Source: Enterobacter phage CC31
Sequence record: NC_014662.1
Reading direction: 5' to 3' (one strand)
Length of the DNA: 64,000 nt
Under the pieces are notes generated by a model that saw nothing but the letters and a program-made list of their open reading frames with translations, searched no databases and was not told the origin of the DNA. Shown here piece by piece: positions 48,591 through 52,773 of this stretch; the first letter of the stretch is position 1, and every line of letters starts with the position of its first letter. Position numbers and translations under genes: made by a program.

Positions 48591-48602
48591 TATTTATAAA
48601 TA
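48591..48602. promoter_or_regulatory. Overlapping divergent late promoter boxes (gene 26 on minus, gene 51 on plus)
   Basis: Palindromic tatttataaata: tatttata 48591..48598 and tataaata 48595..48602. Confidence 0.6.
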
Positions 48603-48622: not shown

Positions 48623-49375
48623 ATGGCCAATATAATTCGTTGTGTACTACCGGACGGGGTCCATCGTTTTAAACCCTTCACGGTAGCTGATTACAGAGAT
48701 TTCCTTCTGGTTCGTAATGATATGCAACATAAAACTTACGAAGAGCAGAAGGTGATTATAAAAGAACTTTTAGCTGATTACTTTGGTGAATATCCTGAGA
48801 CTTTACGTCCATACATGTTCATGAAGGTATTCACTGGCTCAATCGGTAAAACAAAAATTCCAGTAGCTTTCACCTGTCCGACTTGCGAAAAACAAAAGCA
48901 AGTTCTGTTTGACATCAGCCAAGAAGATTTGGTTGAGCCTACTATTGAAGTTGCCGGAATCACAATAGCTTTTAAATTCCCTGAGAAGGAATACGAAGAT
49001 AAAGCTGCAATGATTTACGATTGCATTAAAGCAATTAAATACAACAATCAATGGTATCCTTGGAAAGAGATGTCAGAAGACAACCAAATCCAAGTGATAG
49101 AAGCAATTGACTTTACAACGTTTGAAAAGATTTACACTCAACTAACTCCAATGAGATTTGAACTTAAAATGAAATGTTGCGAGTTAAGAACAAACGTGTA
49201 TGAAGACATTTTATCAGTCTTTAAGCTTCTTATAAACCCAGATGAAATTTTTAGCTTCTATCAAATCAATCACACTCTGGTTAAAAGTTCATATGATTTG
49301 AACAGCATAATGGGTATGATTCCAATCGAGCGAAGCATCGCCCTTTCGTTAGTAGAGAAGGACAATAAGAAATGA
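48623..49375 (+). CDS. 51: gp51 baseplate hub assembly catalyst
   Basis: 250 aa (T4 249); synteny. Confidence 0.85.
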
Positions 49376-50556
49376 CAGTACTACAACGTCCAGGTTTTCC
49401 TAACTTAAGCATAAAGCTCTATGAAAATTACGATGCTTGGTTAGATAACCGTTTCCTTGAATTAGCAGCAACTGTAACGACACTCACTATGCGTGATGGT
49501 CTTTATGGCAGAAATGAAGGGATGCTGCAATTTTATGATAACAAAAATATGCATACCAGAATGAATGGTGACCAAATCATTCAGATTTCTGTGGCCAATG
49601 CAAACAGTAAAAGAACATTGAACCGCATTTACGGTTGTAAGCATTTTTCAGTTTCAGTTGACTCTAAAGGCGATAACATCATCGCAATTCAACTTGGATT
49701 GGTGCACGAGATTATCAACCTCAAGTTTAGTCGTTGTTTCTTCAACGATGCTGGTGAGTCAATTAAAGAGATGATTGGTGTAATTTACCAAGAAACTCCT
49801 CATATTGCTCCAGCTATAAACTCGATTAACACCTACGTTCCACGGGTTCCATGGACGAGTACGTTAAAGGACTATTTAGCTTGGGTTAGAGAAATTTCAC
49901 TTGCCGTTGAAAGTGACCAATTCGTATTTGTGTGGGAAGACATCTATGGCATTAACATGATGGACTATGCATTTATGATTGCACAAGAGCCTATCCCGGT
50001 TGTGGTCGGTGAACCAAGACAAATCGGTCAAATGGTTAATGAGTTGAATACGGACTTGGCATATGACTTTGAATGGCTCACTAAAGCTAACCAATTTACC
50101 CGAAACCCAATGGCTAACGCTACATTTTATGCTCACAGCTTCTTGGATAATCAATTCCCTCGAATTGTTACGGGCGATGGTTATAACTCGGTGTTAGTGT
50201 CTCGTTCAGGTTCATATTCTGAAATGACTTATCGTAACGCATACGAAGAAGCTCTGCGATTAGGAACGATGGCACAATATGATGGTTATGCTAAGTGCAC
50301 GATGGTTGGTAATTTTGAATATACTCCAGGTCAAAAGATAAACTTCTTTGACCCTAAAAACCAATTCCGCACAAACTTTTACGTAGATGAAGTTATTCAT
50401 GAAGTTTCTAATAACGAATCAATAACTACATTGTATATGTTTACTAACGGACAGAACTTAAGTCCAGTAGAACCAATTAAGGTGAAAAATGAATTTAAAC
50501 CTAATACTTCCAATGAAAACAATTCAAGTGAACCAGAAGGAAATAAAAATTCCTAA
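49372..50556 (+). CDS. 27: gp27 baseplate hub
   Basis: 394 aa (T4 391); synteny. Confidence 0.9.
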
Positions 50557-51016
50557 GCTTGGATTGAAGCATCACAACATGCTGAAAGAAGTTAAATCTC
50601 CGGAAGAGAATTTATCTCTGCTGATTAATTCAATTCATCCGGGTTTAACACCAGCCGAAATCGATTACGTTTCAATTCATTTACTTGAGTTCAACGGTAA
50701 GATTAAAAGTAAGGTAGTCAAAGACGATTTTGAATATGACCTTTCAACTTTAAGAATTGTTCAACGATTAGAATTTCAATTCGCTGGTCATACTTTCAAA
50801 TTCAGAGCTCCTGAGCAGTTTGAAGGATTTGGCGGTGTTGATAAGATGCTTTCAAAATGCCTTGAAACGGTAGACGGTAAAAAAGAAGATGTCGACTTCA
50901 TGAAGATGCCAGCATTTGTGACCAAATGGGCAGATGACATTTCAAGTACCGTAGCAGTAAGCGGCCCTAATGGCGACATCAGAGGAGTTGCCAAAATCAT
51001 AGGAATTTTTGAATGA
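50489..51016 (+). CDS. 28: gp28 baseplate distal hub
   Basis: 175 aa (T4 177); ATG preceded by AAGGTG; overlaps gp27 end by 68 nt. Confidence 0.8.
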
Positions 51017-52773
51017 AAACCGAAAACATGAAGACTATGCGTCGGAAGGTTATTGAAGAGGGTCGTAGTGAAAGAGATGCAGCGAAAGCTGCATCAACTC
51101 AAGCCGAATCTTTATCAGTTCTTTCTTCACAGCTTGATGATTTACAAACTCAAGCTGAGCTTACGTCTGAAGTAATTGAGGATAAAGGTAATCAAGTTAT
51201 TGATGCCTTGAATCGAGTTGACCAAAGCATAATTGATACTACTGCCGGGGCTGAATTAACTGCCGAAGCATCTGAAAGAACCACGGAAGCTGTTAAGCAA
51301 CAGACCGAAGTGTCAAACAAGATTTCAGATAAGCTCAGTAAGCTGACTGAACTTTTAAATGAACGTCTTTCAGCTATCACTCCGAATCTTCCGCAGATAT
51401 CTGTTCCCGATACATCTCTGTCTGTAGTTGAAGATGCAGTACCTGTTGATATAGTGACACCAGGGTTACCAGAGTTACTTCAGGAGTTAATTCCTGACCC
51501 TGTCAATAATACCAATAACCCTAACGATGCGTTCTTCCCTACCGTTCCAGAGAACCCAGAGAGTGATTCTAAAAAGGGAGCTGACGAGGAACGTAAGAAG
51601 AAAGACTCTGACACTCTGAGTAATCTGCTTAAAGCTACAAAAAGTGGATTTAAGGCTTCAATGAGTATCACGGATAGAATAGCTGGAATGCTTTTCAAGT
51701 ACACGGTAACTGCTGTGATTGAAGCTGCTAAAACAGCCGCATTGCTGTTCTCTATTGTGCTCGGTATCGATGTCATAATGAAGCACTTCAAATATTGGTC
51801 AGACAAATTCACTTCAGACTTTGATAAGTTCTCTGCTGAAGCTGGCGAATGGGGAAGCACATTATCATCTATATTCGGAACACTTGAAAACATTCAGAAG
51901 TTCTGGGAAGCTGGAGACTGGTCTGGATTGACTGTTGCTATTGTAAAAGGCGTAACTGAAATCATTTACAACCTCAGTGAACTCATTTCTTTAGGAATGT
52001 CAAAAGTAGCTGCCGCTATTCTTTCACTTATTCCTGGCTTAGGAGATGCTGCATTATCTGTTGAAGGAGCTGCATTAGAAGGTTTCCAAGAAAGAACCGG
52101 TAACTCTCTTTCTAAAGAAGACCAAGATACATTAGCTAAGTATCAATCATCTAAGATTGAAAAAGGCGAAAACTTCTTCGATAAAGTATCTCAAGGTAAA
52201 ACTTGGATTGTTAACAAAATAACTGGAGATGCTAACATTTCTGATTTTGTTACAGACGAAGAAAGAACAGCTCAGAACGAAAAACTCCGTCAGATGAAAC
52301 CTGAAGAAAGGGAACAAGTTCTGAAGAAAGGTAATGAAGCTCGTGCTGCTATTGTCAGATTTGAAAAATACATGGAACAAATCAATCCTGACGATAAACG
52401 TTCAGTTCAATCAGCTGATAAAGCATACGCTAATCTTCAGACACAGTTAAATGACACTGACCTGAATAATTCTCCTATTACCAAAAAAGAATTAAATGCT
52501 CGTATGAATATTGTTACTGCTAAGTATGATAAGCTCAAAGGCAAAGAACCACAGCCTGCTCCATCATCTCAATCTGAAGATGTTAAAAAAGTCGAAAGTA
52601 TCGAGAAGAATAAAGCAGCTGAAAAAGCTTCATTAGGAACTGGCGCAGGAGCTGCAGCAGCTAACTTGTTCAATACAAACAACGTCATTAACAACAGTAG
52701 AACTATAAATACTGTTAGTCCTGTAACGAGCACTAATGCTCCAGGCGTATTTGGTGCAACTGGTGTTAACTAA
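51013..52773 (+). CDS. 29: gp29 tail tape measure
   Basis: 586 aa (T4 590); synteny. Confidence 0.9.
   Translation: MKTENMKTMRRKVIEEGRSERDAAKAASTQAESLSVLSSQLDDLQTQAELTSEVIEDKGNQVIDALNRVDQSIIDTTAGAELTAEASERTTEAVKQQTEVSNKISDKLSKLTELLNERLSAITPNLPQISVPDTSLSVVEDAVPVDIVTPGLPELLQELIPDPVNNTNNPNDAFFPTVPENPESDSKKGADEERKKKDSDTLSNLLKATKSGFKASMSITDRIAGMLFKYTVTAVIEAAKTAALLFSIVLGIDVIMKHFKYWSDKFTSDFDKFSAEAGEWGSTLSSIFGTLENIQKFWEAGDWSGLTVAIVKGVTEIIYNLSELISLGMSKVAAAILSLIPGLGDAALSVEGAALEGFQERTGNSLSKEDQDTLAKYQSSKIEKGENFFDKVSQGKTWIVNKITGDANISDFVTDEERTAQNEKLRQMKPEEREQVLKKGNEARAAIVRFEKYMEQINPDDKRSVQSADKAYANLQTQLNDTDLNNSPITKKELNARMNIVTAKYDKLKGKEPQPAPSSQSEDVKKVESIEKNKAAEKASLGTGAGAAAANLFNTNNVINNSRTINTVSPVTSTNAPGVFGATGVN

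Follow-up and report, generated by a model that had tools for sequence, protein, structure and literature searches.

In a stretch of 64,000 nucleotides (nt) of the genome of Enterobacter phage CC31 (NC_014662.1; the whole stretch is called the window below), the reading frame of the baseplate hub gene 27 runs past the apparent start of the neighboring gene 28, and the two genes share 68 nt in different frames. This raises the question of where gp28, the product of gene 28, begins and what the additional C-terminal residues of gp27 encoded in the overlap mean. The answer reached here is that the locus is, with high probability, an ordinary conserved 27/28 junction of the T4-like (Tevenvirinae-type) kind, where gp28 initiates at the ATG at position 50489 and the tail of gp27 is a by-product. 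The elements of the junction are as follows.

49372-50556, plus strand: gene 27, baseplate hub protein gp27, 394 amino acids (aa), TAA stop at 50554-50556
50489-51016, plus strand: gene 28, baseplate hub distal subunit gp28, 175 aa, ATG start
50489-50556, plus strand: the 68-nt out-of-frame overlap, covering gp28 residues 1-22 and 2 nt of codon 23
50479-50484, plus strand: AAGGTG, the putative Shine-Dalgarno (SD) sequence of gp28, embedded in gp27 codons K370-V371
50483-50485, plus strand: TGA in the gp28 frame, one codon 5' of the ATG

The two reading frames and the junction signals

The 68-nt overlap was proposed from the letters of the window, and the ends of the two open reading frames (ORFs) and the position of the ATG agree with it. 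The identity of both genes is well established. Gp27 carries both of its family domains complete, PF09097 (gp27 residues 5-199, domain positions 1-196 of 196, E 7e-102) and PF09096 (residues 202-374, positions 1-173 of 173, E 4e-81), matches T4 gp27 in the PDB (1K28 chain D, 1k28_D) with an E of 9e-186 and is 69% identical to it. Gp28 matches PF11110 (Phage_hub_GP28) over residues 21-174 (E 1e-59) with 200.8 bits at a curated cut-off of 21.5, matches PHROG 1140 over residues 1-175 (E 8e-77) and is 58% identical to T4 gp28 over its full length from residue 1 (tblastn). The ORF order 51-27-28-29-48-54, with gp28 between genes 27 and 29, agrees with the annotation of T4 and PG7. In a megablast search with the gp27-gp28 segment, identity was 95-98% for the ten closest Karamvirus records, among them that of Enterobacter phage PG7, and 83-95% for the remaining 21 matching phage records; the window is a Karamvirus, similar to Enterobacter phage PG7.

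Gp28 is read in the +1 frame relative to gp27, (50489-49372) mod 3 being 1, and on the gp27 side the overlap comprises 2 nt of codon N373, residues 374-394 and the stop codon. AAGGTG is followed by a 4-nt spacer, AAAA, and then by the ATG at 50489-50491, an arrangement consistent with a role of this motif in ribosome binding. For comparison, 16 phages were anchored on the homologous gp28 ATG; 10 of them form the long-overlap set, and the alignment of gp28 N-termini includes 15. AAGGT is invariant across the 10 long-overlap phages in the anchored alignment. The gp28 frame is interrupted by the TGA at 50483-50485, which leaves 50489 as its earliest possible start.

The junction in T4 and related phages

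In the T4 RefSeq record (NC_000866), gene 27 occupies positions 117228-118403 and gene 28 positions 118348-118881, and the two overlap by 56 nt. According to the gene 28 entry of this record, Arisaka and co-workers established the N-terminus of gp28 by protein sequencing. The first eight residues of gp28, MNLNLILP, are identical in the window and in T4, and the two proteins align collinearly from residue 1. The original prediction that gp28 starts at ATG 50489 after AAGGTG is therefore upheld by the alignment with a T4 protein whose N-terminus was sequenced; the alignment with T4 gp27 and gp28 could also have shown gp28 to begin downstream of the gp27 stop, and it does not. T4 further shares with the window the gene order 51-27-28-29-48-54, the +1 frame relation, the junction AAGGTnAAAA-ATG-AATTTAAA and a polar gp27 tail after KVKNEFK. 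It differs in the length of the overlap (56 versus 68 nt) and in the gp27 tail itself, which in T4 reads SDTTTEESSSSNKQ, a sequence other than that of the window, and is shorter overall by 3 residues. No relevant difference was found in PG7 (Karamvirus pg7, NC_023561), which is 95% identical at the nucleotide level over the gp27-gp28 segment: its annotated 68-nt overlap, junction, gp27 tail and gp28 protein are all identical to those of the window. The CW742 record annotates the same 68-nt overlap.

The junction AAGGTnAAAA-ATG-AAnTTAAA is common to all 10 long-overlap phages, which represent nine lineages, as is the +1 frame relation; their overlaps measure 29-89 nt. The overlaps in these lineages and in three outgroups are listed below.

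Jiaodavirus (JD18): 29 nt
Marfavirus (Marfa): 29 nt
Bragavirus (phiP4-3): 38 nt
Dhakavirus (IME08): 47 nt
Mosigvirus (Shf125875): 53 nt
Tequatrovirus (T4): 56 nt
Serratia phage 4S: 59 nt
Karamvirus (window, PG7, CW742): 68 nt
Kanagawavirus (CIP9): 89 nt
Krischvirus: 1-4 nt
Aeromonas phages Riv-10 and Aes012: 4 nt
Acinetobacter phage Maestro: no overlap

The gp28 N-terminal segment can be aligned in all 15 phages, with L3 invariant. In phages without the long overlap, gp28 aligns with residues 1-25 of the window protein and carries extra N-terminal residues. Since the N-terminus of gp28 is alignable in the outgroups, the start at 50489 is backed by homology well beyond the clade that bears the overlap.

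The overlap had been described as longer than the 1-4 nt usual among T4-like phages. With respect to the neighborhood this is correct. According to the coordinates of coding sequences (CDS) across 50 kb of PG7, whose genome is nearly identical, the 27/28 overlap is the longest between adjacent CDS; the next two measure 20 and 17 nt, and the majority 1-4 nt. The nearby junctions are likewise short: gp51/gp27 and gp28/gp29 are joined by 4-nt ATGA overlaps and gp48/gp54 overlap by 1 nt. The one directly downstream of gene 28 serves as a comparison:

51013-51016, plus strand: ATGA, stop/start of gp28 and gp29 (tape measure), an ordinary T4-type 4-nt junction

As a departure from T4, however, the description fails, for the same junction overlaps by 56 nt there. 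Judged from the genomes compared, the long 27/28 overlap is a family trait of T4-type phages and no peculiarity of the window. It is also already known, being annotated in T4 and PG7; no account of it was found in the literature searched.

The start of gp28 and its annotation

The original prediction offered a second possibility, an internal ATG as the start of gp28:

50513-50515, plus strand: ATG, gp28 codon M9, a rejected alternative start preceded by cctaatacttcca and having no SD sequence

Initiation here would give a 44-nt overlap and a protein of 167 aa. An ATG does exist at this position, the start is annotated in two GenBank records (PS49 and SonariX), and residues 1-8 of the AlphaFold2 (AF2) model of gp28 are coil of lower confidence. 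Codon 9 is not conserved, however: it varies among M, I and T within Karamvirus (I in CW742 and RZH, T in EnA02) and is L in T4 and L, I or T in other genera. No stretch of the protein is more conserved than the eight residues that would be dropped; they contain L3, invariant in the 15 phages, and match the sequenced N-terminus of T4 gp28. We thus consider a start at 50513 very improbable. Still harder to credit is a gp28 that starts 3' of the gp27 stop, for example at the ATG at 50579, which would abolish the overlap altogether. This start is annotated in three records (myPSH1140, EnC07 and EnA02), and the match to the PF11110 model does not set in before gp28 residue 21. It would nevertheless delete the invariant P22, K23 and G25 together with the conserved motif IPKLGLKH, and both PHROG 1140 and the tblastn alignment to T4 extend from residue 1. 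Invariant residues would also be lost with a start at 50528, which, like 50579, is found in GenBank.

Public Karamvirus records contain four different gp28 starts, distributed as follows.

50489-equivalent start: PG7, CW742, KMB20, COW86c and RZH records
50513-equivalent start: PS49 and SonariX records
50528-equivalent start: Pet-CM3-4 record
50579-equivalent start: myPSH1140, EnC07 and EnA02 records

Outside this genus, the annotated gp28 of IME08 (Dhakavirus) is 75 nt too long and that of CIP9 (Kanagawavirus) 39 nt too short. By the gp28 alignment, the 50489-equivalent, T4-homologous ATG is the only one of the annotated starts that fits. The practical value of the present analysis lies in annotation, as public records conflict over the start of gp28, including the other starts used in Dhakavirus and Kanagawavirus.

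The C-terminal tail of gp27

It had also been suggested that gp27 has a C-terminal extension, and this turned out to be the case: gp27 of the outgroup phages stops at the gp28 ATG, and relative to them the residues encoded in the overlap extend the window protein. The overlapped part of gp27 consists of residues 373-394, and the last Pfam domain ends at residue 374. In T4 gp27, the structural domains end at residue 368 (PMC3004832). In an AF2 model of the window gp27 built on a 15-sequence alignment, the last strand ends at residue 358, and the predicted local distance difference test score (pLDDT) is below 50 at residues 372-394. Following NExK, the tail varies across genera both in length and in sequence.

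Natural variation provides further information at one codon:

50530-50532, plus strand: gp27 codon E387 (GAA), which is TAA in phages myPSH1140 and KMB20

With the G>T change at the equivalent of 50530, gp27 loses 8 residues and the overlap of these two phages, members of the same genus, is reduced to 44 nt; in gp28 the change is synonymous (V14). These natural stop variants mean that at least the distal part of the tail is dispensable in nature, and the same may hold for the whole of it. The tail, polar and predicted to be disordered, is most plausibly viewed as a read-through extension that is tolerated.

At the edge of the low-confidence C-terminal region, gp27 has the invariant motif KVKNE (K370-E374, 50479-50493). 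The codons of this motif are at the same time the putative SD sequence, the spacer and the start codon of gp28. Part of what looks like a conserved gp27 motif is therefore the ribosome-binding site (RBS) and start codon of its neighbor, and the conservation of KVKNE probably reflects the expression signals of gp28.

Selection and chance in the overlap

Selection in the overlap acts on the gp28 frame. Over the first 27 nt, which are shared by the long-overlap phages, pairwise amino-acid identity averages 0.77 in the gp28 frame, compared with 0.51 for gp28 overall. The same 27 nt read in the gp27 frame give 0.52, compared with 0.61 for the gp27 core, and this identity comes mostly from N-E-x-K, which is forced by ATG-AAy-TTA-AA. 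Substitutions point in the same direction. Among 12 Karamvirus sequences, nine variable alleles were found in the overlap; six are synonymous and three nonsynonymous in gp28, and one is synonymous and eight, including one nonsense change, are nonsynonymous in gp27. The rest of gp27 has 253 synonymous and 33 nonsynonymous substitutions (Fisher p = 6e-7). The 27/28 overlap is thus a clean, if small, case of asymmetric selection in overlapping genes.

The length of the overlap is only mildly unusual if it is treated as a pure open-frame event. In the gene cluster, the density of stops in the gp27-type off-frame is 0.12 per codon, and the probability of an open run of at least 22 codons is about 0.05-0.06. 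The first nine off-frame codons are, moreover, forced open by the conserved N-terminal codons of gp28: given M-N/K-L-N/K-L/V/I-I-L-P-x-K, the earliest possible stop in the gp27 frame is the tenth codon from N373. JD18 and Marfa gp27 stop exactly at this earliest allowed codon (…NELKRDSSY*). By a hand calculation, the expected tail is about 16 codons (nine forced plus a mean open run of about seven), close to the observed spread of 9-29 codons.

Origin of the overlap and alternative explanations

The arrangement that best fits these data is one in which gp28 would be initiated independently at ATG 50489, with an RBS placed within the final conserved codons of gene 27 (K370-V371-K372-N373). Ribosomes that translate gene 27 in the other frame would pass the gp28 start and read 21 more codons before reaching the TAA at 50554. 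The added codons would give gp27 a polar, disordered and dispensable tail whose sequence would be dictated by the gp28 codons that it overlaps. Comparison with the ATGA-type junctions of 1-4 nt between the same two genes in Krischvirus, Biquartavirus and Tulanevirus suggests how this came about. The letters ATGA persist at 50489-50492 of the window, but gene 27 arrives at the ATG in a different frame and the TGA is not read as a stop. In Krischvirus, the gene 27 frame is GAA GGT AAA ATA TGA and stops on the gp28 ATGA, while the window letters AAGGTGAAAAATGA read AAG GTG AAA AAT GAA in the gene 27 frame. The frame of gene 27 relative to the ATG thus differs by one position between the Krischvirus-type and the long-overlap groups, a difference for which an ancestral insertion or deletion near the 3' end of gene 27 would account. 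Most likely, a small change of this kind shifted the frame past the ancestral ATGA stop/start, and the overlap appears to be a tolerated consequence of it.

Several points weigh against this interpretation. The direction of the change comes from parsimony over few outgroups and not from a rooted phylogeny. The N-terminal protein data for gp28 come from T4, where they are known via the GenBank note. The first 10 residues of the gp28 AF2 model have a mean pLDDT of 66, and with such moderate confidence the predicted structure would leave the strong conservation of the N-terminus unexplained; a sequence search found no relative of gp28 in the PDB, and because no solved gp28 structure is detectable by sequence, the role of the N-terminus cannot be read from structure. 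Finally, every one of the nine long-overlap lineages sampled has retained the overlap, which could mean selection and not mere tolerance.

The last point leads to the idea that the long overlap is retained by selection as an expression device, with translation of the gp27 tail across the gp28 RBS throttling or coupling gp28 synthesis and so keeping the gp28:gp27 ratio low, or that the acidic, polar tail acts in hub assembly. Besides the retention of the overlap in nine lineages, it can be argued that gp28 is listed with about one copy per tail and gp27 with three (PMC3004832), and that in Karamvirus a stable hairpin (z about -2.3) forms at 50520-50566 around the gp27 stop. Against this, the overlap measures anything between 29 and 89 nt across lineages and between 44 and 68 nt in a single genus, the sequence of the tail is not conserved, the outgroups function with a 1-4-nt junction, and RNA structure is not common across genera. 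The same 131 nt were folded in ten phages, and no conserved RNA structure at the start of gp28 or at the gp27 stop was found, z being between -0.6 and +1.5 in seven of the eight non-Karamvirus phages; Marfa has a z of -2.2, with a fold different from the Karamvirus hairpin. On balance, we regard the selected device as unlikely, and slightly less likely again the particular forms that it might take, i.e., that the overlap tunes the gp28:gp27 ratio (gp28 being a low-copy hub factor or a tape-measure chaperone) or that the disordered tail aids hub assembly. A programmed frameshift, either a +1 shift that would make a gp27-gp28 fusion or a -1 shift at U_UUA_AAC that would lead from gp28 into the gp27 frame, deserves hardly any credence. 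The heptamer TTTAAAC at 50494-50500 does read U UUA AAC in the gp28 frame, and the predicted gp28 fold may weakly resemble that of tail assembly chaperones (TACs), a class that often uses frameshifting. Phage TACs (HK97 TAC, PDB 2ob9; YqbN, 3klu) are encoded just upstream of the tape-measure gene. TTTAAAC, however, occurs in only some Karamvirus members, T4 has the related TTTAAAT, and CW742, JD18, IME08, Shf125875, CIP9 and Marfa have CTTAAA (AAC TTA AAC in CW742, JD18, IME08 and others). There is no conserved downstream stimulatory structure, a -1 shift would yield a peptide of only 22 aa, and no gp27-gp28 fusion product was found in the literature searched. That the tail stems from an erroneous frameshift, introduced by sequencing or assembly near the 3' end of gene 27, is close to inconceivable: the same frame relation recurs in nine lineages, T4 among them, and in 12 Karamvirus genomes that were sequenced independently, all 31 phage records matched by megablast align over the full gp27-gp28 query, and this replication across genomes refutes it.

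A conserved T4-like junction with a by-product tail carries little biological weight, since the arrangement is annotated in T4 and PG7 and the T4 record notes protein-level support.

RNA structure and transcription of the region

The Karamvirus hairpin at 50520-50566 consists of a 10-bp and a 5-bp stem and encloses the gp27 stop, with a minimum free energy z of about -2.2 to -2.4 in the window and CW742; in CW742, two of its G-U pairs become C-G and U-A. It was not found in T4, JD18, IME08, Shf125875, 4S, phiP4-3 or CIP9, and it is probably a genus-specific coincidence with the IPKLGL codons of gp28.

In a brief look at a possible split hoc gene in the PG7 annotation, no clean mapping to the window was obtained.

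The transcription of gene 28 can be considered from the distribution of late-promoter motifs:

48595-48602, plus strand: late-promoter consensus TATAAATA, upstream of gene 51

A separate late promoter for gene 28 was not found, as no TATAAATA occurs between 48595 and the next instance at 52704. Genes 51, 27, 28 and 29 are therefore presumably transcribed as one polycistronic late mRNA. The window has 18 occurrences of the motif where 3.9 are expected, an enrichment of about 4.6-fold. At 48591-48602, in the gp26/gp51 intergenic region, two such motifs, one on each strand, lie back to back and overlap each other (TATTTATAAATA), which suggests putative divergent late promoters, one for genes 26-25 and the other for genes 51-27-28-29.
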